From: Bacillota bacterium
GTDB taxonomy: Bacteria; Bacillota; Limnochordia; Darwinibacteriales; Darwinibacteriaceae
Direction: 5' to 3'
NCBI GenBank assembly: GCA_030054835.1
Contig: JASGVS010000028.1
Span: 1,032-65,031 of the forward strand
DNA: 64,000 bases
The notes beneath the pieces are model-generated. The model was given only the letters and a program-made list of their open reading frames with translations, was not told the origin of the DNA and did no database searches. Position 1 is the first letter of the stretch. The number at the start of each line of letters is the position of its first letter. Positions 16,820 to 64,000 of the stretch are shown piece after piece. A program made the position numbers and the translations under genes.

Positions 16820-17038
16820 TTGAATGAGTTGATGGGCATCGCCGTTATAAACATGGACCAGGAGTTTTGGGACGGGGAAATGGCACAGGTGAGGGAACAT
16901 AGCTGCACAAGCTTTATGGTCAATTTCTCAGGTATGGACTTAAACGGCGACGACGCCTTCGGTGGAGCTTGGGTTATCTTCCAAGGGGAAACAACCTAGC
17001 AGGAAAACTCCTATATGGATCCCGGGGATCCAAAAAAA

Positions 17039-17076
17039 CCTTCTAAAGACCTGATCTTTAGGAGGTTTTCTGTTTT
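17039..17076 (+). terminator. Rho-independent terminator of the ABC operon
   Basis: CCTTCTAAAGA-N5-TCTTTAGGAGG hairpin followed by TTTTCTGTTTT. An A-run upstream makes it potentially bidirectional. Confidence 0.7.
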
Positions 17077-17105: not shown

Positions 17106-17149
17106 TTGTGATCAAGGTCACTGCAGCATTCTAGGTTGAAGCCTATAAT
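17106..17149 (+). promoter_or_regulatory. pfl promoter: TGTGA-N6-TCAC palindrome (Crp/Fnr- or Rex-type site) plus -10 TATAAT
   Basis: TTGTGATCAAGGTCACTG at 17106-17123. TATAAT at 17144-17149. No good -35 (CTGCAG). The site centre is about -41.5 relative to the expected start site. Confidence 0.5.
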
Positions 17150-17192
17150 TAAGTCGTCAACTAAGGAATCTTAACAAGGGAAGGTGAGCGCC

Positions 17193-19472
17193 ATGCAAGA
17201 GAATTTATTCACTAGAAAAGAAATGGCCCAGGCCTGGGAAGGTTTCAAACCGGGTCAGTGGTCCGAGACGATAGATGTGAGGGACTTTATCCAGCAGAAC
17301 TATGAGCCTTACTACGGCGATGAGTCTTTCCTGGCAGAGGCAACCGAGGATACGCTTTCCATTTGGCGGTCCATGGATAAACTCATCCAGGAGCAGGTCC
17401 GTTCTAGGACAATCACCGTCGACCTGGAGCGTTTCAGCGGTATTGACAATTTCGCCCCCGGTTACATCGATAAGGATAAGGAACTGATAGTGGGCCTACA
17501 AACGGATGAACCGATGAAGAGGATTATGAACCCATACGGCGGTTTTCGCATGGTGAAAAACGCCCTGGCGGCCTACAACCTCGAGATGGATCCGGAACTG
17601 GAAAGAAGCTTTACCGAGTTCAGAAAGACGCACAATGACGGCGTTTTTGACGCTTACACCCCCCAGATGCGTACTGTCCGCACGGTGGGACTCTTGACCG
17701 GCTTACCCGATGCCTACGGCAGAGGACGGATTATCGGCGATTACCGCCGGGTAGCCCTGTACGGAGTGGACTACCTGAAGGAAATGAGAATGGGGGATAA
17801 GCTCAATCTTACCGGTCCGGCAACTGAAGAAACTATCCGCCTTAGGGAGGAATTCGCAGAGCAGATCCGGGCACTAGATGAGATGAAATCCATGGCGGCT
17901 AAATACGGTTATGATATTGGCCGGCCAGCTCAGAACGCCAGGGAAGCTGTGCAGTGGCTCTACTTCGGCTATTTAGCCGCAATTAAGGAAAACAACGGTG
18001 CAGCCATGAGTTTGGGCAGAAACACCACTTTCCTCGATATCTATATCCAGCGGGATCTGGAGCGGGGGTTAATCGATGAGAAAACGGCTCAGGCACTAAT
18101 CGACCAGCTTGTGATTAAACTGCGTTTGGTAAGGCACTTGAGGACACCAGAGTACGACCAGCTCTTTGCCGGTGACCCCACCTGGGTAACCGAGTCCATC
18201 GGCGGCATGGGACTGGATGGACGGCCCCTGGTAACCAAGACGGCCTTTCGGTTCCTTCACACCCTGATCAATCTTGGTACTTCGCCCGAGCCCAATTTGA
18301 CCATTCTCTGGTCCGAAGATCTACCGCGGGAGTTTAAGGAGTACTGTGCTTACATCAGCATCAAGACCGCATCCATTCAGTATGAAAACGATGATTTGAT
18401 GCGACCCATTTACGGTGATGATTACGCCATCGCCTGCTGCGTATCTGCTATGCGGGTCGGGAAAGACATGCAGTACTTCGGTGCCCGGGCAAACCTAGCC
18501 AAAGCCCTGCTCTACGCCATTAACGGTGGAGTAGATGAAATGAAGCGGGACAAGGTAACAGGCGGCCCCATCACCGTTCTGCCGGGCATTGAAAGGAACA
18601 CCCAGGAAGTATTGGATTACGACACGGTGATGACCACTTTCAAGCAGGTCATGGACAAACTGGCGGAGATTTACGTGGACACCATGAACACAATCCACTA
18701 CATGCACGATAAATACGCTTACGAGGCGAGCCAGATGGCACTGCATGATCCTCATGTCCACAGGTATATCGCCTTTGGCGTGGCGGGCATTTCCATTGTA
18801 GCTGACTCCCTTTCTGCCATTAAACACGCCAAGGTAAGGCCCATCCGCAACGAAGAGGGTCTGGCAGTGGACTTTGAAATTGAGGGGGACTTCCCCAGAT
18901 ACGGAAATGACGATGACCGGGTTGACAGCATCGCGATTGAGGTGAACAAGTACTTTATGGAAGCGCTGCGCAGAACGCCCGCTTACCGCAACGCGGAGCA
19001 CACGTTGTCGCTGCTCACCATCACTTCTAACGTGGTGTACGGCAAAGCTACGGGCAACACGCCGGACGGCCGCAAGAAGGGTGAACCGTTTGCTCCGGGG
19101 GCAAACCCCAGTAACGGTGCTGACCGCCTAGGTGCTTTGGCCTCCCTCAACTCGGTAGCCAAAATACCTTACAAAAACGTGAACCAAGACGGTGTCTCCA
19201 ACACTTTCTCCATTGTTCCCTCCGCTTTGGGTAAGAACCTGGAGGAGCAGGTGACCAACCTTACCAACATCATGGGCGGTTATTTCTCCCAGGGTGCATT
19301 CCACTTGAACGTGAACGTACTGGAGAAGTCACTCTTGCTTGACGCCATGGAGAACCCAGAGAAGTATCCGAACTTGACCATTCGGGTTTCCGGTTACGCA
19401 GTCAGGTTCAACCAGCTGGAGAAGGAACAGCAGCTGGATGTGATCAACAGAACATTCCATCAGTTCGTCTAG
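17193..19472 (+). CDS. pflB: Pyruvate formate-lyase (formate C-acetyltransferase)
   Basis: Glycyl-radical motif RVSGYAVRF at the C-terminus and active-site IACCVSAM. The N-terminus is colinear with E. coli PflB (AWEGF..., VRDFIQ.NY.PY.GDESFL). ATG 17193 is preferred over GTG 17184. Confidence 0.95.
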
Positions 19473-19486
19473 AAAAGGGGGATATT

Positions 19487-20989
19487 ATGAAAGGCTTCCT
19501 GCATTCAATGGAAACAATGGGGTTAGTGGACGGCCCGGGCACACGGACCATCTTCTTCCTGCAAGGCTGTGCGCTCCAGTGCGCCTTCTGCCACAATCCC
19601 GATACCATCAAAAGGACAGGGGGCCGGGAAATAACCCCAGAAGAAGTACTGGCAATCGCGGACAGATACCGCCCCTATTACGGCGAAGAGGGGGGAGTCA
19701 CCTTTTCAGGTGGCGAACCCCTCCTTCAGGGGGCCTTCCTAGCTGAGACGTTGGAGCTTTTCAAGCAGCGCGGTTACAACACCTGCATCGACACGGCTGG
19801 ATTTGGCAGCCCCAAATACTTTCCTAAGATCTTCCCCTTGGTGGATACGCTCCTCTTGGATGTAAAGGCGTTTAACCCCGGGGCCTTCAAAGACCTGACC
19901 ACAGTGGACGGTTTTGAGAGCTACTTGCAATTCCTTTCCAACTTAGATTATTATGGCTTTAGGGGTCAGATTTGGATTCGCCACGTAATGGTGCCTGGTT
20001 TGACCGATAATGAAGAGTCCATGCAGAAACTGATCGAGGTAATCAAGCCTGTCAGGCACAGGGTGGAGAGGATTGAGATTCTCCCTTACCATACATCCGG
20101 TGTGCAGAAGTACAGGGAGTTGGGGTTGGACTATCGCTTAGAAGGGGTGGAGCCGATGGATAAGGACAAGGCAAAGGAATTTGAGATCTATGCCAACAAG
20201 CTCTTTGCCGAAATGCTGGGCCAGGACAGGCGTCAGGCCGAGCAGGAACGGCAGGAAAGATCCAGGCTCCTGCGGGAAAAGGAAGTAGCCTCTGAGCAGG
20301 AAAAAGAGGAAATAATGGAGGCCCTGAAGAAGCTGCCCCTTCTCAACGACGTGGATCCGGCAGACGTAGATCAGGTGTTGAGTGAAGTGATTCTGGCCAA
20401 CATTAAGGCAGGGGAACTGATCTTTAGGACCGGGGATGCCCCCGATTACATGTACTTGATCTTCGCAGGCCAGATGAAAATCTACGTTAACACTATGGAC
20501 GGAGAAGAACAGATCTTCTATATCTACCGGGACGGCGATTTCGTGGGTGGGCACAACATCCTCAACCAAACTCCCTACCGCTACATCGGAGAAGCGCTCA
20601 CCGAATGCAAAGTGGTAGTGATTCCTAAAGCCACCTTTGACCGCTACTTTTACAACTCCCCCGTTGTGCTCCGAAGCATCTTAACCAAGAGTTTTGAGCG
20701 GATCCGCTGGGCAGAAAGTTTAATCCAGAGGCTTGCCACCAGCAATGCTTCCATGAAAACGGCTGGGTTGCTTTTGAAACTGGTACAGAGAATCGGTGTT
20801 GAAACGGAAGAGGGAATTAGGCTGGAACTCTCCATGAACCGGGAGGAGTTGGGTAACTACTCCGGCCTGCGCCGGGAGACGATCACCAGAAAGCTGGGCG
20901 AGTTCAAAGAGCTCGGTTACATCGAACTGGTGGGCAACAAAGTGATAATTGTCAAAGACTTGGCAGCGCTGGAAGGATATGTGCTGTAA
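19487..20989 (+). CDS. pflA: PFL-activating enzyme (radical SAM) fused to a Crp/Fnr-family cNMP-binding + HTH regulator
   Basis: 500 aa. CALQCAFCHN (CxxxCxxC) and GGVTFSGGEP in the first ~245 aa. A charged linker follows, then a Crp-like beta-barrel (LFRTGDAPDYMYLIFAGQMKIYV) and HTH (REELGNYSGLRRETITRKLGEFKELGYIEL). Confidence 0.85.
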   Translation: MKGFLHSMETMGLVDGPGTRTIFFLQGCALQCAFCHNPDTIKRTGGREITPEEVLAIADRYRPYYGEEGGVTFSGGEPLLQGAFLAETLELFKQRGYNTCIDTAGFGSPKYFPKIFPLVDTLLLDVKAFNPGAFKDLTTVDGFESYLQFLSNLDYYGFRGQIWIRHVMVPGLTDNEESMQKLIEVIKPVRHRVERIEILPYHTSGVQKYRELGLDYRLEGVEPMDKDKAKEFEIYANKLFAEMLGQDRRQAEQERQERSRLLREKEVASEQEKEEIMEALKKLPLLNDVDPADVDQVLSEVILANIKAGELIFRTGDAPDYMYLIFAGQMKIYVNTMDGEEQIFYIYRDGDFVGGHNILNQTPYRYIGEALTECKVVVIPKATFDRYFYNSPVVLRSILTKSFERIRWAESLIQRLATSNASMKTAGLLLKLVQRIGVETEEGIRLELSMNREELGNYSGLRRETITRKLGEFKELGYIELVGNKVIIVKDLAALEGYVL

Positions 20990-21004
20990 AGGAACTGGCT
21001 TCGG

Positions 21005-21032
21005 GCCCGGGGTTTAGACCCCGGGCTTTTTT
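21005..21032 (+). terminator. Rho-independent terminator of the pfl operon
   Basis: GCCCGGGG-TTTAGA-CCCCGGGC followed by TTTTTT. Confidence 0.85.
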
Positions 21033-21151
21033 GTCTGCCTGGACCGGAACAGGAAAGGGCAAGTTGCCGTGGAACTATAGTGTATAATAACTAGTACGGA
21101 AAGGGAGCGGTAAAACCGTTCCTTGTGATAAGGAAAAGGATTGGAAACGGG

Positions 21152-23779
21152 ATGAAAAAGCTTGTCGTTGGCATCTTAGCCCATGTGGACGCGGGTAAGA
21201 CAACTCTCGCCGAAAGCATGCTTTACTTGAGCGGAAAAATCAAAGAACTGGGCCGGGTCGATCATAAAGACGCCCATTTAGATACCCACGCCCTGGAGCG
21301 GGAACGGGGAATAACCATCTTCGCAGAACAGGCCCTTTTCCAAGTGGCGGACACCGAAATCACCCTCCTGGACACACCTGGTCATGTGGACTTTTCGGCC
21401 GAGATGGAAAGGACGCTCCATGTGTTAGACTACGCCGTTTTAGTGATCAGCGGCGTGGACGGGGTTCAGGCCCACACCAAAACGTTGTGGCGCCTCTTGG
21501 AACTTTACAGCATCCCCGTGTTCATTTTCGTGAACAAAATGGATCGGTTCGGTACCGATAGGCAGAGACTCCTAAGTGAACTCAGAAGCCAACTGCACCC
21601 AAGCTGCGTTGAGTTCAGCCCAGAGCGCACGTACCAGTTCCTAGAAGAGCTGGCCGGTTGCGATCTGGAACTGATGGAGCATTTTTTCCAACACCATACC
21701 ATCGAAACTGATCAGATCAGCCAAGCGGTGGGGGAGCGTAGGCTCTTTCCCTGCTTTTATGGTTCAGCCCTAACCCTGGCCGGGGTGGAAGAATTCCTCA
21801 ATGGCCTAGTAACATACGCTGCCCCGCCAACCTATCCCAACGAGTTTGGGGCAGAAGTTTTCAAGGTTTCCCGGGATGAACAGGGTAACCGCCTCACCCA
21901 CCTGAAAATTGTGGGGGGCAGTCTGCGGGTACGGGATGCCCTGCAGGGTGAAGACTGGGAAGAGAAGGTGAACGAAATCCGCCTTTATTCCGGGCAGAGA
22001 TACACCACTGTAAATGAGGTGGGACCAGGTTCGGTCTGTGCAGTAACGGGATTATCCCAGGCCAAACCCGGTGAGGGAATAGGCATCGGTACAGGCAGCG
22101 GGGCATCGTTTTTAGAGCCTGTCCTTTCCTACCAGCTCGTTCTGCCCGATGGAACCAATCCCCTAGAAATCCTACCCAAGCTGCGCGAGTTGGAAGAAGA
22201 ACAGCCAGAGCTTCACCTTGTTTGGAACGAAGCTCTCCAGGAGATCCAGGCCCAGCTCATGGGGGAAGTGCAGCTGGAAATTTTGGAGAGCCTGATCGCG
22301 AGCCGTTTTGGCTTAAATGTGCGCTTTGGCGCTGGAAAAATCCTTTACAGAGAAACAATCGCAAGTAGAGTGGAAGGCGTAGGGCACTACGAGCCGCTGC
22401 GGCATTATGCGGAGGTGCAGCTCCTGCTTACGCCCGGCGAGCCCGGTAGTGGGCTTAAGTTCGACTCTATAGTGAGTGAAGATGTCTTGGCCGGCAATTG
22501 GCAGCGTTTAATCTTGACCCACCTCCAGGAAAAAACCCACCTTGGCGTTTTAACGGGCTCGCCCATAACTGATATGACAATAACGTTGGTAGGAGGCAGA
22601 GCGAGTCTCAGCCATACCCAGGGCGGCGACTTCCGCCAGGCAACCTACCGGGCAGTACGCCAGGGCTTAAAGGAAGCCAAGTCCGTTCTGCTCGAACCCT
22701 ATTATTCCTTCCAGCTGGAAGTACCGGAGAAAATGGTTGGACGGGCCATTCACGACTTAGAGCGAATGCACGCCAGCTATCAGATCCAGGCTGCCAACGG
22801 CGAGACTTCCGTGCTGGTGGGAAGCGGTCCCGTTGTTACACTCCGCTATTACCCCCAGGAGGTAATAGCGTATACCAAGGGAACGGGCCGCATTTTCTTG
22901 AGTTTTGACGGTTACCGCCCCTGCCACAACGCAGAAGAGGTAATTGCCCAGATCGGCTACGACTCGGAGCAGGACATGGATAACCCCACAGGCTCAATCT
23001 TTTTCGCTAACGGGAGAGGTTTTTATGTGACCTGGGATAGGGTCAAAGCTTTCATGCACCTGCCCCGTTACTTAGAACCCGAGCCCGAGCGGGAACAGGA
23101 GCAGAGGCCCGTCCAGCCCAGGAGGGTGTCCAGCCGGGACCTGGATGAGATCGATTATGAGCTGCTGGAAAGAACGGTAAGTGCCAATCGGGGCAAGAAG
23201 CGGAAATGGGTATCGAAACCGAGGGACACGGAAGGGACAACCGAGCCGAGACAGCCCAAGGAAATACGCCAGAGCTATCTGCTTGTGGACGGCTATAACA
23301 TCATCCACGCCTGGCCCGAACTGAAGCAGTATGCAACGGAAAACATGGATACTGCCCGCCTGAGGCTGATCCAAGCGTTAGCCAACTACCAAGGCGTGAC
23401 CAGGCATAACGTTGTGGTCGTTTTCGATGCCCACCTTGTAGAGGGTCAGGAGGAAAAGGTAGAAGACCACCATGGCCTCAAGGTGGTATTCACCAAGGAA
23501 GCCCAAACAGCGGACCAGTATATTGAAAAAATCGCCTATGCTAACCGGGGCAAACACCTGATCACAGTAGCCACTTCGGACCACCTGCAGCAGATTATTA
23601 TTCGAGGGGCGGGCTGTGCCCTCTGGAGCGCAGAGGAACTAAGGCAGGAGTTGGCTAGAATCCAAGCGGAGCTCTCCCAATATTACGGCGATGGGGCACG
23701 CCCCCAAGCGGCGCCGGTGGGAGAGGCCCTTTCTCAGGACGAATTGAAAGATTTAGATGACTTGAAATCGGAGGAATAA
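21152..23779 (+). CDS. EF-G/TetM-like translational GTPase fused to a C-terminal YacP/Rae1-type NYN ribonuclease domain
   Basis: G1 AHVDAGKT, G2 RGITI, G3 DTPGH, G4 NKMD, and a ~640-aa EF-G/TetM-like body. Charged linker. The C-terminus carries LLVDGYNIIHAWPELK, VVVFDAH, FTKEAQTADQYIEK and VATSD, as in B. subtilis YacP. ATG 21152 is preferred over GTG 21125. Confidence 0.8.
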   Translation: MKKLVVGILAHVDAGKTTLAESMLYLSGKIKELGRVDHKDAHLDTHALERERGITIFAEQALFQVADTEITLLDTPGHVDFSAEMERTLHVLDYAVLVISGVDGVQAHTKTLWRLLELYSIPVFIFVNKMDRFGTDRQRLLSELRSQLHPSCVEFSPERTYQFLEELAGCDLELMEHFFQHHTIETDQISQAVGERRLFPCFYGSALTLAGVEEFLNGLVTYAAPPTYPNEFGAEVFKVSRDEQGNRLTHLKIVGGSLRVRDALQGEDWEEKVNEIRLYSGQRYTTVNEVGPGSVCAVTGLSQAKPGEGIGIGTGSGASFLEPVLSYQLVLPDGTNPLEILPKLRELEEEQPELHLVWNEALQEIQAQLMGEVQLEILESLIASRFGLNVRFGAGKILYRETIASRVEGVGHYEPLRHYAEVQLLLTPGEPGSGLKFDSIVSEDVLAGNWQRLILTHLQEKTHLGVLTGSPITDMTITLVGGRASLSHTQGGDFRQATYRAVRQGLKEAKSVLLEPYYSFQLEVPEKMVGRAIHDLERMHASYQIQAANGETSVLVGSGPVVTLRYYPQEVIAYTKGTGRIFLSFDGYRPCHNAEEVIAQIGYDSEQDMDNPTGSIFFANGRGFYVTWDRVKAFMHLPRYLEPEPEREQEQRPVQPRRVSSRDLDEIDYELLERTVSANRGKKRKWVSKPRDTEGTTEPRQPKEIRQSYLLVDGYNIIHAWPELKQYATENMDTARLRLIQALANYQGVTRHNVVVVFDAHLVEGQEEKVEDHHGLKVVFTKEAQTADQYIEKIAYANRGKHLITVATSDHLQQIIIRGAGCALWSAEELRQELARIQAELSQYYGDGARPQAAPVGEALSQDELKDLDDLKSEE

Positions 23780-23892: not shown

Positions 23893-24927
23893 GTGACTGT
23901 ACTCTGCCCATACGGAACGCACAGGGTGATTGAACCAGTTGGGGCCCTGCCCCAAGGCGCGCTGCGCTTGGATAATAGGATGGAGAGTTACCCAAATGAG
24001 CTGCTGCTTGATGTGGAGACGCTGAATATTGACTCAGCCAGCTTCACCCAAATTAGGCAGGAGGCCGGGGACGACCCAGCCAGGATCGGGGAAATTATGA
24101 TGGAGATCGTCCGCACCAGGGGTAAACACCATAACCCTGTCACCGGATCCGGGGGCATGTTTATCGGCACGGTCAAGGAAATTGGCAAAGATCTGCAGGA
24201 GCGAACCGATCTACAGATCGGCGACCGCATCGCTTCTCTAGTTTCTTTGACGTTAACTCCACTTGTAATCGATAAGGTCAAGGCAATTGATCTGGAGACT
24301 GCCCAGGTGGACATTGATGGGCAGGCCATTCTCTTTGAGTCAGGCATTTACGCCGTACTGCCAGAAGATCTGCCGCAGAAACTGGCCTTGGCTGCCTTAG
24401 ATGTGGCAGGCGCACCTGCCCAAACAGCTAAACTTGTGAAGCCCGGTGATACCGTCTTGATTGTGGGAGCAGGCGGTAAGTCGGGCTGTTTATGTTTACA
24501 TGAGGCCCGCAAGCGGGCTGGTGTTTCTGGTACCGTGATCGCCATGGATTTTGGCGAAGCTGCCGTAGGAAGAATCAAGAAGCTTGAACTGGCTGATATC
24601 GTCCTAAATGCAGACGCTACCAAGCCGGTGGACTGCCTCGCCCTGCTGCAGGAGGCCAGCGGCAAATTGGCCGATCTCACCATTAACTGCGTAAACATAC
24701 CCAATACTGAAATGACGTCCATACTATGCACCCGGGATGGGGGCATAGTTTATTTTTTCAGTATGGCTACCAGTTTTACCGCAGCTGCCTTAGGAGCGGA
24801 AGGGGTGGGCAAGGACGTGAACATGCTGATCGGCAACGGTTATACCAAGGATCACGCCAAGATTACCCTGCAGGTTCTGCGGGAAAACCCCAAGCTGCGG
24901 CAGTTGTTTGAGGAGATTTACGTTTAG
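23893..24927 (+). CDS. kdd: L-erythro-3,5-diaminohexanoate dehydrogenase
   Basis: ~345 aa with CPYGTHRVIEP...LPQGALRLD N-terminus and GAGGKSG Rossmann motif. Lies in the lysine fermentation operon. Start is GTG 23893 or TTG 23887. Confidence 0.8.
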   Translation: MTVLCPYGTHRVIEPVGALPQGALRLDNRMESYPNELLLDVETLNIDSASFTQIRQEAGDDPARIGEIMMEIVRTRGKHHNPVTGSGGMFIGTVKEIGKDLQERTDLQIGDRIASLVSLTLTPLVIDKVKAIDLETAQVDIDGQAILFESGIYAVLPEDLPQKLALAALDVAGAPAQTAKLVKPGDTVLIVGAGGKSGCLCLHEARKRAGVSGTVIAMDFGEAAVGRIKKLELADIVLNADATKPVDCLALLQEASGKLADLTINCVNIPNTEMTSILCTRDGGIVYFFSMATSFTAAALGAEGVGKDVNMLIGNGYTKDHAKITLQVLRENPKLRQLFEEIYV

Positions 24928-24931
24928 CAGA

Positions 24932-26023
24932 ATGGCTGGGAAATGGGGATCTGCGGTGCTTGCTCAGGACTTGGCAAATCGGTTCCGGTCCGTCTCCATC
25001 ATTGGACTGGGTAAGAATACGGGGAAAACCTTTACATTCAATTACCTGCTGCGGGAGAGCAGGCGGCTGGGGCTATCCACCGCCATCACCTCCATCGGCC
25101 TGGACGGGGAGGAACGGGACACCATCACTGGCCGCGCCAAACCCCAGGTTGTAGTCTATCCGGGCCAGATCGTGCTGACTGCGAGCTCGCTCTTGACGGC
25201 GAGCAGTTTGGACTATGAAGTCCTTGCAGCTACAGGCATCGCATCGCGCCTTGGCGAGATTATTATTGTGCGCGCCATGGGCTTGGGACGGGTTGTGTTG
25301 GCGGGTCCCAGCAACCGCAGTGAGCTGGAACAGCTCCAAGAAAAGCTCGAACCTTTCCCTCACGATCTCCTGCTGGTGGATGGAGCCTTTGACCGGCGCT
25401 CCCTCAGCGCCCCCGCTGCCACTGACACCACCATCTTAGCGGTGGGTACCGAAGCGGCCTGGGATCGAGAGGATTTGCTAGGGCGCCTTAAGCTCCAGTG
25501 GCAGCTGCTGACCCTCTCTGCCTTGGACAACCAGCAGCTGCTTAGTTCCATAGAGACGATTCCAAACGATGCCAAGCTTGTTGTTTTCTGCGGTAACACT
25601 CCGCAGCATATAATCTACCACAGCGACTCTCCGGGGACAGGTGGGTCTTGGCCGACATACACTGAACAGGGTATCTATACCATCTTTGTACCCGGCATGC
25701 TTACCGATGGGCTGTTAGCCCAGGTGCTGCCGAAAAACGTGCCGACAAGTCTGACCCTACTTGTCCCCGACGCTACCCATCTTTTTTTAAGCAGGCGCAG
25801 TCTAGACATTCTTACCCATCGGGGTGTTTCCCTCAAGGTTCTCAGACAAGTGCACATCAGTGCAGTAACCGTCAACCCGTACAGCAGTCGTTTTGGCTGC
25901 GCCGAGCCCCTGAGCCTCTTGCAGGATGTTGGCCGAGTAGTGGAACCCGTCCCCTGCTATGATCTAAACCTGGGGCTCCGCTATGTGGCGAAGGAGGATG
26001 CCGATGCAGTTTCTCACCGCTGA
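24932..26023 (+). CDS. Putative lysine 5,6-aminomutase reactivase subunit (KamB-like)
   Basis: ~360 aa with a P-loop-like GLGKNTGKT. Sits between kdd and the MutS-like ATPase directly upstream of kamDE. Start is uncertain (ATG 24932 or GTG 24956). Confidence 0.5.
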   Translation: MAGKWGSAVLAQDLANRFRSVSIIGLGKNTGKTFTFNYLLRESRRLGLSTAITSIGLDGEERDTITGRAKPQVVVYPGQIVLTASSLLTASSLDYEVLAATGIASRLGEIIIVRAMGLGRVVLAGPSNRSELEQLQEKLEPFPHDLLLVDGAFDRRSLSAPAATDTTILAVGTEAAWDREDLLGRLKLQWQLLTLSALDNQQLLSSIETIPNDAKLVVFCGNTPQHIIYHSDSPGTGGSWPTYTEQGIYTIFVPGMLTDGLLAQVLPKNVPTSLTLLVPDATHLFLSRRSLDILTHRGVSLKVLRQVHISAVTVNPYSSRFGCAEPLSLLQDVGRVVEPVPCYDLNLGLRYVAKEDADAVSHR

Positions 26024-63325: not shown

Positions 63326-64000
63326 GAACACGATAACCCTAGAACTAAACCAGATCCATAAGGGCTTCAAAAACACCAGCGGGGAGCTGAAGGTACTCGC
63401 AGATATTTCCCTCACAGTCCAGGCCGGCGAGATTATTGCCTTGATTGGTCCCTCTGGGTGTGGGAAGACAACACTGCTCAACATTATCTCTGGCATAGCA
63501 GCACCTGATCGAGGAACGTTAAGGCAGAGCCCCAGCCTTCGCCTGGCTTATGTTTTCCAAGAACCGCGCCTACTTCCCTGGAAAACGGTGGAGGGTAACA
63601 TTAGGTTTGTGCAGGACAACTTCTTGGCGGCACAGGAAGGGAAAGAAGTGAGGGAGAAACTTCTGCAGAAAACGGGTCTTTTAGCCTACAAAGACTCCTA
63701 TCCCGCCCAGCTGAGCGGCGGGATGAAACAGAGGCTGGAGCTGGTCCGAGCTTTAGCAATTAAGCCTCAGCTGCTGTTAATGGACGAACCCTTTAAGTCC
63801 CTCGATCTGGCCCTGAAATTTGACCTACAGCGGCTTCTCCTGACAGAACACGAACAGGAGGGGTTCGCTCTACTCTTCACTACCCACGATCCAGACGAGG
63901 CGGTTATGCTGGCTGATCGGGTGGTTGTGCTCTCGGATAAACCAACTCAGATCCACCAAGAGATGGTGATCGGTCTCACACGGGAAAAGCGCACCAAGAC
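63318..64000 (+). CDS. ABC transporter ATP-binding protein (3' end beyond window)
   Basis: My own translation from ATG 63318: GPSGCGKTT Walker A, LSGGMKQR signature, LLLMDEPF Walker B. The frame is open to the window edge. The ATG overlaps the permease stop. Confidence 0.85.
   Translation, partial: MTKNTITLELNQIHKGFKNTSGELKVLADISLTVQAGEIIALIGPSGCGKTTLLNIISGIAAPDRGTLRQSPSLRLAYVFQEPRLLPWKTVEGNIRFVQDNFLAAQEGKEVREKLLQKTGLLAYKDSYPAQLSGGMKQRLELVRALAIKPQLLLMDEPFKSLDLALKFDLQRLLLTEHEQEGFALLFTTHDPDEAVMLADRVVVLSDKPTQIHQEMVIGLTREKRTK

Follow-up and report, generated by a model that had tools for sequence, protein, structure and literature searches.

The pfl operon of enterobacteria, E. coli included, is a classic example of an anaerobically induced operon, and its transcription is switched on by FNR, an anaerobic class II activator. 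For CRP, the consensus operator is AAATGTGATCTAGATCACATTT. In trigger enzymes of the PutA, BirA and NadR type, a metabolic enzyme and a DNA-binding domain reside in one polypeptide that regulates genes of the same pathway, and the state of the enzyme controls DNA binding. We know of no radical-SAM enzyme that belongs to this group or is joined to a transcription factor, and to our knowledge no Crp/Fnr regulator that carries a complete enzyme as its N-terminal module has been described. A further point of reference is ArcR of Staphylococcus aureus. It is described as a Crp/Fnr-family protein that recognizes a Crp-like motif and acts as a positive regulator of one anaerobic catabolic operon, arc, the means of its own activation being called still undefined (PMC2883068; PMC9998937).

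Here we analyse a 64-kb stretch of DNA (the window) in which the gene directly downstream of pflB encodes a pyruvate formate-lyase (PFL) activase, PflA, joined in frame to a complete Crp/Fnr-type transcription factor. The product is probably bifunctional, serving both as PFL activase and as a local positive autoregulator of the pfl operon. Both halves come from heavily studied families; the pairing of the modules itself appears to be new, and a literature search retrieved no publication on a PflA-Crp fusion or on a radical-SAM trigger enzyme. The only database name that we encountered for such fusion proteins is “pyruvate formate-lyase-activating protein”, so that a regulator apparently dedicated to pfl is invisible in current annotation.

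The genes upstream of the pfl unit encode ABC transporters. The locus itself is a predicted two-gene operon, pflB followed by pflA::crp, lying between terminators. Its features, in window coordinates, are as follows.

17035 to 17069, + strand: terminator-like hairpin at the end of the ABC-exporter unit upstream, forming the 5′ limit of the pfl transcription unit
17107 to 17122, no strand assigned: predicted operator TGTGATCAAGGTCACT, with the core GTGA-N6-TCAC at 17108 to 17121 and its centre, between 17114 and 17115, at −41.5
17121 to 17126, + strand: weak −35 region CTGCAG, overlapped by the predicted operator
17144 to 17149, + strand: −10 hexamer TATAAT, with a predicted transcription start near 17156
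17184 to 19472, + strand: pflB, pyruvate formate-lyase (glycyl radical enzyme), first gene of the operon (PFL-like, 663.8 bits; Gly_radical, 118.5 bits)
19487 to 20989, + strand: pflA::crp fusion open reading frame, 500 residues, ATG start, beginning 14 bp past the pflB stop codon
19487 to 20221, + strand: PflA (PFL activase) module, residues 1 to 245, supported by TIGR02493, the Foldseek match and conserved columns
20222 to 20308, + strand: charged linker, residues 246 to 274, rich in Glu, Arg and Gln
20309 to 20659, + strand: N-terminal helices of the Crp half and beta-barrel of the cNMP-binding fold, residues 275 to 391
20660 to 20737, + strand: long C-helix (the dimerisation helix of Crp/Fnr proteins), residues 392 to 417
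20762 to 20974, + strand: winged helix-turn-helix, residues 426 to 496, with the recognition helix at nucleotides 20873 to 20914
21003 to 21038, + strand: intrinsic terminator that ends the two-gene operon, an 11-bp stem (8 of its pairs G-C) ahead of a T-run

No second pflA, pflB or crp is present within the 64-kb window.

An earlier note on this DNA had described a 500-residue open reading frame in which a radical-SAM activase, recognizable by CALQCAFCHN and GGVTFSGGEP, is followed by a Glu/Arg/Gln-rich linker and by a Crp-type module without an FNR-type cysteine cluster ahead of its barrel. This description holds throughout. The frame is present on the + strand, both motifs are found in an activase half on which Pfam, NCBIfam and fold comparison agree, the linker lies at about residues 246 to 274, the C-terminal half matches Crp/Fnr models, and alignment bears out the absence of the cysteines. 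A hidden frameshift or the merging of two genes, an artefact that the note had raised, is excluded by independent assemblies and by 56 other genomes, all with the same unbroken frame. A survey for the same fusion beside pflB elsewhere, as the note had proposed, gave a single unbroken reading frame in 56 species-level genomes.

The fusion is therefore real, and it is widespread. The exact protein sequence of the window is already present in public collections, and one member of its 90%-identity cluster was found on 240 independent contigs. Both halves are present in all 120 of the 90%-identity clusters listed, and nearly all of these are full-length. The 56 unbroken fusions come from 80 species-level loci examined and always lie directly downstream of pflB; among all 66 fused or split loci of the genome scan, pflB adjoins pflA wherever the contig extends upstream of pflA. 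Disruption was seen only twice, as a frameshift in L011 and as an in-frame TGA in L023. Carriers include Limnochordia-like MAGs, Finegoldia magna, Gallicola, Neofamilia and others, and the groups represented include Limnochordia-type digester bacteria, Peptoniphilaceae, Christensenellaceae and Saccharofermentanales. F. magna, a member of the Peptoniphilaceae, is a human commensal and opportunistic pathogen. The Crp halves of fusions from other genomes are 43–86% identical to that of the window. Both halves are under purifying selection, and catalytic and DNA-contact residues are invariant among 90 sequences.

Eleven loci (L041, L044, L051, L053, L054, L064, L065, L068, L082, L086 and L087) have the split arrangement pflB-pflA-crp; three of these (L082, L086 and L087) were recognized from gene calls and BLAST. 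Each gene of a split locus has its own ribosome binding site and start codon, and the operator is the same as in fused loci. Split forms occupy at least two places in a neighbor-joining tree that is too crude for counting fusion or fission events. The fusion either arose from an adjacent pflA-crp pair or reverted to one, and the pair is still unfused in several lineages. Many independent fusions are not supported: clustering at 50% identity leaves only two full-length representatives, which indicates a single family. Free-standing paralogs (L069–L079) follow four conserved genes that we read, from their N-termini only, as prkC, rsgA, rpe and thiamine pyrophosphokinase. No operator was found near these paralogs, save one motif match about 4.7 kb upstream in L077.

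The N-terminal half belongs to the PflA family by cluster motif, equivalog score, fold and adjacency to pflB. Pfam profiles place Radical_SAM at residues 24–181 and Fer4_12 at residues 14–105 of the fusion protein, and the NCBIfam equivalog model for PFLA (TIGR02493) matches residues 5–231 with 246.8 bits against a cutoff of 231.75. The CX3CX2C motif (C28, C32 and C35; CALQCAFC, nucleotides 19568–19591) is invariant among 90 family members, as are D15, G16, P17, G18 and R20 of the DGPGxR loop and the two glycines of GGEP (residues 75–78), in which E77 and P78 are kept in at least 90% of these sequences. The former is the substrate loop and GGE the SAM motif of a fold that is a partial TIM barrel, and Foldseek superimposes this half on E. 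coli PFL-AE (3C8F and 3CB8) with TM values of 0.87–0.88 and 36% identity; among solved structures, the comparison returned none that spans both halves. The module is thus predicted to possess activase activity and to put the glycyl radical on PflB.

The C-terminal half has the architecture of the Crp/Fnr superfamily, with a barrel, a long C-helix and a C-terminal winged helix-turn-helix. Matches to cNMP_binding (residues 305–387), HTH_Crp_2 (426–496) and Crp (448–479), that is PF00027, PF13545 and PF00325, each exceed the Pfam cutoff, the fold resembles the structures of MtbCRP and GlxR (TM 0.85–0.89), and an AF2 model places a helix at 392–417 ahead of the winged helix-turn-helix. The closest sequence match among solved structures is FNR (E. 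coli and Aliivibrio fischeri, PDB 5CVR and 5E44; E = 8e-30). The best-conserved block of this half is KSFERIRWAE in the C-helix (95% column identity). In the recognition helix, RETITR, residues R463, E464 and R468 align with R180, E181 and R185 of CRP; R463, R468 and K469 are invariant among 90 sequences and E464 is kept in at least 90% of them. Also invariant in this set is E341, which aligns with E58 in the AR3 loop of CRP.

The ligands and cofactors of the best-known relatives are missing from this half. The cAMP contacts of CRP are replaced (E72 by G355, S83 by Y366, T127 by A409 and S128 by E410) and the position of R82 is not conserved, and for this reason a cAMP receptor is ruled out. 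No cysteines align with the Cys20, Cys23, Cys29 and C122 of FNR, which rules out an FNR-type cluster within the Crp half. DNA recognition also departs from that of FNR, which uses E209-x-x-S212-R213 on a TTGAT half-site, where the present protein has RETITR and a GTGAT half-site.

A palindrome at 17107–17122 had been singled out by the earlier note as a site through which pfl might be autoregulated. The palindrome is present, and the proposal now finds strong support in its recurrence, its fixed position at −41.5, the pairing of a strong −10 with a poor −35, and the CRP contact residues of the putative regulator. Of 57 crp-linked loci, 55 have a GTGA-N6-TCAC core ahead of pflB, as does one of a small set of four independent crp-less control loci (Fisher p = 0.001). 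A count over 55 related loci gives the site in 53. The two crp-linked exceptions are L035, which has one core mismatch, and L037, for which only 218 bp of upstream sequence exist; the control with a similar site is L094, which has TTGTGACGCAAATCACAA upstream of pflB. Of the 62 occurrences of the exact motif in 909 kb, 52 precede pflB by no more than 260 bp. A matrix from whose training the window was withheld scores 17107–17122 at 20.9 and gives nothing else above 11.0, the value of the runner-up, so that the pfl operator is the sole high-scoring site in the 64 kb and no larger regulon was found there. A second exact motif at 63966 was rejected as a target; it is inside an ABC-ATPase coding region, and 0.7 matches are expected by chance.

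The arrangement of the promoter is equally constrained. Of 53 loci, 36 have a distance of exactly 29.5 bp from the operator centre to the first base of the best −10-like hexamer, and 43 come within 1 bp of this value, which places the site at −41.5. In F. magna DSM 20470 the start is predicted about 7 nt past TATACT, again with the site at −41.5. In 40 of the 53 loci a hexamer of the form xAxxxT stands precisely at the canonical offset (chance rate 0.09, p about 1e-30). Across loci, the −10 element averages 5.3 of 6 matches to TATAAT and the −35 region only 1.9 of 6 to TTGACA, in which only G−33 (17123) and C−32 are conserved, the former invariantly. Information content in the aligned promoters is limited to −48 to −35, G−33/C−32 and the −10 hexamer. 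Because the −35 is nearly absent and the −10 is near consensus, the promoter should be weak without an activator; strict phasing to −41.5 combined with a degenerate −35 is the mark of an activator. Within the operator, T follows GTGA in 46 of 53 sites (otherwise C in 6 and G in 1, with no A), and TCAC is preceded by A in 31 or G in 22 and never by T, such that the inner bases GTGAT...ATCAC agree with the CRP consensus. With 5-bp half-sites 6 bp apart at an activator position, this is a putative Crp/Fnr binding site, and the pfl promoter is, by its predicted geometry, of the class II activator type.

We infer from these features that the Crp half binds DNA and that it activates rather than represses. 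The N-terminal half, to all appearances a catalytically intact activase, would install the glycyl radical on PflB. A dimer of the fused protein would bind (A/T)GTGAT-N4-(A/G)TCAC(A/T), with its centre at position −41.5 of the pflB promoter, and activate pflB transcription by a class II mechanism. Since the regulator is encoded in the operon under its control, the circuit would be one of local positive feedback that serves pfl alone. Formation of formate from pyruvate has been reported for the fusion carrier F. magna, and its authors ascribe the formate to PFL. We would guess that the tether is flexible and that each module functions largely independently of the other. The input to the regulator would then be a non-cNMP ligand in its own barrel/C-helix pocket, or the regulator may be constitutively active, and the tether would mainly link its abundance and lifetime to those of the oxygen-labile Fe-S activase. 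If the modules are truly independent, the fusion itself is left without an explanation.

A possible, though rather doubtful, alternative is that the PflA half serves as the sensory input of the regulator and does the job of the N-terminal cluster of FNR. The oxygen-labile [4Fe-4S] cluster, SAM occupancy or docking on PflB would gate the Crp half through its dimerisation, its binding to DNA or its stability; docking might act by titration or, should PflB be homodimeric like its E. coli counterpart, by promoting dimerisation. Tentatively, then, cluster integrity (oxygen), turnover of SAM to 5′-deoxyadenosine or occupancy by unactivated PflB might decide whether Crp dimerises and pfl is switched on. 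Such coupling would fit with the retention of the fusion to about 46–50% identity in many lineages, with a Crp half from which the cAMP ligands are gone and in which there is no cluster, and with the anaerobic, FNR-dependent induction for which enterobacterial pfl is generally known. Moreover, PflA and the linker meet the barrel exactly where FNR has its sensory cysteine cluster, and at that same position the separate Crp protein of the Tissierella split forms (L053, L054 and L065) carries an N-terminal CxxCxxCxxxxC, which among the relatives occurs only there.

However, the linker is the least conserved segment of the family, with column identity of 0.30–0.36, a length of 37–67 residues and, in distant members, an abundance of Pro and Gly that is hard to fit with a conserved allosteric relay. 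In the clade of the window it is predicted to extend the last helix of PflA (residues 226–264, pLDDT about 70), and the AF2 model of the fusion protein reaches a pTM of only 0.61, so that no fixed interdomain interface is predicted. Split forms that have no cysteine cluster (L041/L044, L051/L064, L068, L082 and L087) nevertheless share the operator with the fused loci, and the promoter geometry is kept in all of them except L051 and L087. The conserved pocket and C-helix residues are likewise present in free-standing paralogs unrelated to pfl, although SFERIRWAE was part of the scan pattern, an ascertainment effect that weakens this point. The variable linker and the existence of split forms thus disfavour tight coupling; a looser coupling of enzyme and regulator may be compatible with both.

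It is unlikely that the fused protein is instead a repressor of the pfl promoter that acts by blocking access to the −35 region. The site does overlap this position, and negative autoregulation is common among regulators encoded in operons under their control, but phasing to the −10 at single-base-pair precision would be needless for a repressor, a promoter of this kind is expected to be weak without help, and the invariant E341 stands at the AR3 position of CRP.

The main rival for the identity of the site is Rex, the NADH/NAD+-responsive repressor. The palindrome would then be mainly the operator of Rex or of another regulator encoded elsewhere, and the Crp half would act at other promoters or bind no DNA, a reading that we consider very unlikely. 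The S. aureus Rex consensus TTGTGAAW4TTCACAA does contain GTGA-N6-TCAC, S. aureus Rex shifts the pflB upstream region and tolerates mismatches at position 7, and the likeness of the motifs of Rex and the Crp-type ArcR has been remarked upon (PMC2883068); the site in the crp-less locus L094 is also in keeping with Rex. Rex operators in Firmicutes have the core and the place upstream of pflB in common with the present site. However, the inner positions are GTGAA...TTCAC for Rex and the opposite, CRP-like GTGAT...ATCAC here, the site co-occurs with a crp gene, and the recognition helix holds the three CRP residues that read GTGA. Rex is a repressor without fixed phasing, its mapped sites in S. 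aureus lying inside promoters described as SigA-like or a few bp to either side of them (PMC2883068), whereas the pfl sites hold strictly to −41.5 beside a weak −35, as expected for an activator.

Residues 1–245 share the whole fold and the CX3CX2C, DGxGxR and GGE motifs with E. coli PflA, to which the fusion adds 255 residues comprising the linker and a complete transcription factor. With E. coli CRP the C-terminal half shares the fold of barrel, C-helix and winged helix-turn-helix, the R180/E181/R185 triad and the class II position at −41.5, and GTGAT-N4-ATCAC with its A-rich flank resembles the CRP consensus. Unlike CRP, it has an enzyme joined to its N-terminus and its cAMP ligands are replaced, and where CRP is global, the fusion appears from the scan of the 64-kb window to be a local regulator of a single operon. 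ArcR is the closest functional analogue of the split pflB-pflA-crp arrangement, the likeness being one of function, but its target is another operon, and it is not known to occur fused to an enzyme.

FNR has its Fe-S sensory element N-terminal to the barrel, in the position that PflA takes in the fusion and that the cysteine cluster takes in the Tissierella split forms. The fusion differs from it in that the Crp half is without Cys20, Cys23, Cys29 and Cys122, and in having RETITR and GTGA in place of VETISR and TTGAT. A regulator of the kind proposed could account for pfl control in Clostridia-type lineages that are without FNR of the enterobacterial kind. As in trigger enzymes, a catalytic and a DNA-binding domain are found in one chain with a predicted operator at the promoter of its own operon, a resemblance that is read from domains and motifs; state-dependent DNA binding is known for trigger enzymes, whereas in the fusion it is hypothetical. 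With the operator, the promoter geometry and the fused and split variants already defined, the locus offers a tractable system for asking whether enzyme state is relayed to transcription, and by what route. If the activase should prove to be the sensor, the fusion would be the first radical-SAM “trigger enzyme”, in which a whole Fe-S activase replaces the N-terminal cluster of FNR.

The gene that follows pflB in the window encodes a single protein in which a pyruvate formate-lyase activase (PflA; residues 1-245) is joined by a linker (246-274) to a regulator of the Crp/Fnr family (275-500).

Features of the pfl locus
17035-17069: terminator-like hairpin, upstream boundary of the two-gene operon
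17107-17122: predicted operator TGTGATCAAGGTCACT, 5′ of pflB
17144-17149: -10 hexamer, a perfect TATAAT, 5′ of pflB
19487-20989, + strand: pflA::crp fusion ORF, 500 aa, beginning 14 bp past the stop codon of a 762-aa ORF
20306-20309: GAGG inside the linker, 5 nt before an in-frame ATG (M277, 20315-20317)
about 21003-21028: terminator-like hairpin, downstream boundary of the two-gene operon

The 762-aa ORF is PflB, with Pfam matches to PFL-like (663.8 bits) and Gly_radical (118.5 bits). All the sequence details from which an earlier note had proposed the fusion are found in the 500-aa ORF, and the four domains it expected exceed curated Pfam cutoffs: Radical_SAM (24-181) and Fer4_12 (14-105) in the first half, cNMP_binding (305-387) and HTH_Crp_2 (426-496) in the second, where Crp (448-479) is matched as well. 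Residues 5-231 score 246.8 bits against TIGR02493, the NCBIfam PflA equivalog (cutoff 231.75). The AlphaFold2 prediction, made from an alignment of 90 sequences, has high confidence (mean pLDDT 87.4), and its pTM of 0.61 is the value expected if the two predicted modules have no fixed mutual orientation. In Foldseek comparisons the fold of the N-terminal half resembles E. coli PFL-AE (3C8F/3CB8; TM 0.87-0.88 at 36% identity), that of the C-terminal half resembles M. tuberculosis CRP, GlxR, CRP, NtcA and FNR (TM up to 0.89), and none of the PDB entries among these matches spans both halves. Translation from M277 may yield a free 224-aa Crp module; relatives carry M, L, I or F at this position, so that Met is not conserved, and SD-like strings in the linker probably arise by chance from its GA-rich codons.

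Searching 5.8 billion proteins gave 619 matches, and both halves are present in all 120 of the listed 90%-identity clusters, nearly always at full length and with identity down to 49%. The exact sequence of the window protein is already public. Its cluster comprises proteins from Limnochordia and Bacillota MAGs, one of which was found on 240 contigs, and is named in every source only “pyruvate formate-lyase-activating protein”. Full-length fusions collapse at 50% clustering into two representatives (P0088 and P0121) and thus form one coherent family, whose cultured carriers include Finegoldia magna DSM 20470, Neofamilia massiliensis and Gallicola.

When 185,579 species genomes were scanned with the Crp half alone, 80 loci were recovered. 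An uninterrupted fused ORF lies directly 3′ of pflB in 56, so the arrangement described in the earlier note recurs in other genomes; with the public copies, these loci rule out an artefact of assembly or gene merging. The fusion is disrupted in 2 loci, pflA and crp are separate and adjacent in 8, each with its own RBS and start, and only a free-standing paralog is present in 14. Three further split loci (L082, L086 and L087) were found on fetching unfused pflA genes. Split forms occupy at least two positions in a crude NJ tree, implying more than one transition between the fused and split states, and occurrence in both states is the classic pattern of genes that function together. The two disruptions, both in MAGs, are an in-frame TGA exactly where the Crp module starts (L023:1736-1741) and a frameshift within pflA (L011:832-875), which may be sequencing errors, pseudogenes or recent fission.

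Residue conservation was counted over 90 aligned family sequences. The activase half shows no variation at C28/C32/C35, in the DGPGxR loop or at G75/G76 of GGEP, and the remaining PflA core is also strongly conserved. In the Crp half SFERIRWAE is nearly fully conserved; three recognition-helix residues (R463, R468 and K469) never vary, and neither does E341, which aligns with the CRP AR3 residue E58. Column identity in the linker is only 0.30-0.36, compared with 0.88-0.95 for the catalytic motifs, 0.95 for KSFERIRWAE and 0.86-0.89 for the HTH, a pattern that indicates selection on both halves but not on the linker. Linker length ranges over 37-67 aa. In the clade of the window the linker is rich in E, K and R, with a predicted helix at 226-264 (pLDDT ~70), and in distant members it is Pro/Gly-rich. 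With its low identity and varying length and composition, it looks like a flexible tether.

Autoregulation of pfl through the palindrome at 17107-17122, as put forward in the earlier note, gains from comparison of promoters. Among 55 related loci whose upstream sequence is readable, 53 have an exact GTGA-N6-TCAC 35-206 bp before pflB, whether fused or split. Of its 62 occurrences in 909 kb of fetched DNA (background 0.011 per kb), 52 are within 260 bp upstream of pflB. In 36 of 53 loci the best -10 hexamer begins exactly 29.5 bp past the palindrome centre, in 43 the spacing is within 1 bp of this value, and in 40 an xAxxxT hexamer occupies the exact canonical offset (chance rate 0.09, p about 1e-30). 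With the -10 hexamer at -12 to -7, the predicted operator is centred at -41.5. After removal of near-duplicate loci, information content is confined to -48 to -35, G-33/C-32 and the -10 hexamer; matches to TTGACA average 1.9 of 6 at -35, and the -10 averages 5.3 of 6. By sequence criteria, this footprint with a poor -35 and strong -10 marks the promoter as class II and activator-dependent. When the window is left out of training, the matrix (training sites 15.5-23.3) scores the window operator 20.9 and the runner-up in the 64 kb 11.0, leaving one credible target of the regulator within the window.

Three related loci, two labelled Saccharofermentanales and one Clostridiaceae, carry a second exact motif, GTGATCTGGATCAC, ~870 bp into the pflB coding region (L046:1617, L047:4664, L056:4660), which may simply be conserved coding sequence.

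The conserved palindrome could instead be an operator of Rex, or serve both regulators. The Firmicute Rex operator TTGTGAAW4TTCACAA has the same GTGA-N6-TCAC core, Rex binds 5′ of pflB in S. aureus, and the study concerned remarks on the likeness of Crp-type (ArcR) and Rex motifs (PMC2883068). However, among 53 sites GTGA is followed by T (46 sites), C (6) or G (1) but never by A, and TCAC is preceded by A (31) or G (22) but never by T, which fits the CRP sequence GTGAT...ATCAC and is opposite to Rex. Also, the -41.5 position is fixed, the -35 is degenerate, and the recognition helix of the Crp half retains the residues with which CRP reads GTGA. Two of the additional split loci, L082 and L087, have the site, and crp-less loci (L081, L083-85, L088-90) lack it, with best matrix scores of at most 8.6; overall it is present in 55 of 57 crp-linked and 1 of 4 crp-less loci (Fisher p = 0.001, from a small control set). 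The crp-less exception, favouring Rex, has TTGTGACGCAAATCACAA 116 bp upstream of pflB (L094:1709-1726), with no -10 at the canonical offset; its pflB-pflA pair has no adjacent crp and is followed by what we take, by eye, to be a butyrate/acetate-kinase-like gene. This site may belong to Rex or to a Crp-family regulator encoded elsewhere. Inner bases, phasing, recognition helix and co-occurrence together argue that the pfl operator belongs to the Crp module.

The Crp half was aligned residue by residue with E. coli CRP and FNR, and the FNR recognition helix used agrees with the A. fischeri FNR alignment. In this comparison the DNA-contact triad R180/E181/R185 of CRP corresponds to R463/E464/R468, unlike the VETISR helix of FNR. 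The cAMP ligands of CRP are replaced (E72 by G355, S83 by Y366, T127/S128 by A409/E410), and the position corresponding to R82 is not conserved. Alignment with FNR places no cluster cysteine in the Crp half, in agreement with the earlier note. As judged from these residues, a cAMP receptor and an FNR-type oxygen sensor are both ruled out, and the retained triad points to a CRP-type DNA reader that is neither.

Free-standing paralogs (L069-L071 and L073-L079, from Saccharofermentanales, Clostridiaceae and related MAGs; for example L069:6959-7684) are 44-48% identical and keep the SFxRIRWAE and RETxTRKL motifs. Four conserved genes lie 5′ of them, presumably prkC, rsgA, rpe and thiamine pyrophosphokinase, as assigned by N-termini only. 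Their genomes often also carry the fusion, and the operator motif is absent near them except for one match ~4.7 kb upstream in L077.

Just 3′ of the pfl terminator, an 884-aa ORF (21125-23779, + strand) is another composite protein, with an EF-G/TetM-like translational GTPase at the front (GTP_EFTU, EF-G_D2, EFG_IV, EFG_C) and, at the C-terminus, an NYN nuclease domain like that of YacP (PF05991, 170 bits); the protein may act as a ribosome-targeted RNase. Farther on, a 371-aa ORF with no Pfam match (24908-26023, + strand) overlaps the 3′ end of a 346-aa ORF that has a weak, sub-threshold zinc-dehydrogenase-like match (ADH_zinc_N), and a MutS-domain-V protein comes next.

The best-supported reading is a bifunctional protein that forms a local positive feedback loop on pfl. 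The PflA half would activate PflB, and we infer that the Crp half binds as a dimer at -41.5 and activates the pflB-pflA::crp promoter. In separate Crp proteins of Tissierella MAG split loci (L053:4228-4941, L054:1175-1897, L065:6938-7660), a CxxCxxCxxxxC motif, a candidate FNR-like Fe-S sensor, opens the protein exactly where PflA and the linker are attached in the fusion; a hairpin and T-run part pflA and crp in at least L053. Because PflA likewise sits where FNR has its sensory cluster, it is plausible, if rather unlikely, that PflA itself senses for the regulator through its Fe-S state, SAM or docking on PflB. Largely independent modules are favoured, since the linker is unconserved and split forms use the same promoter. 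With independent modules, the regulator would either respond to a non-cNMP ligand, acting on the conserved pocket and C-helix of the regulator itself, or be constitutively active, and the tether would make its abundance and its lifetime depend on the oxygen-labile activase.

We found no description of a PflA-Crp fusion in the literature, and the fusion proteins already in databases are annotated as activase only. A 2026 preprint reports that F. magna makes formate from pyruvate, attributes this to PFL and does not mention the fusion. The protein is best described as a putative class II activator of the Crp/Fnr family whose N-terminal module is a radical-SAM enzyme. In function its closest counterparts are operon-embedded regulators of the ArcR type; in form they are trigger enzymes, for example PutA and BirA.
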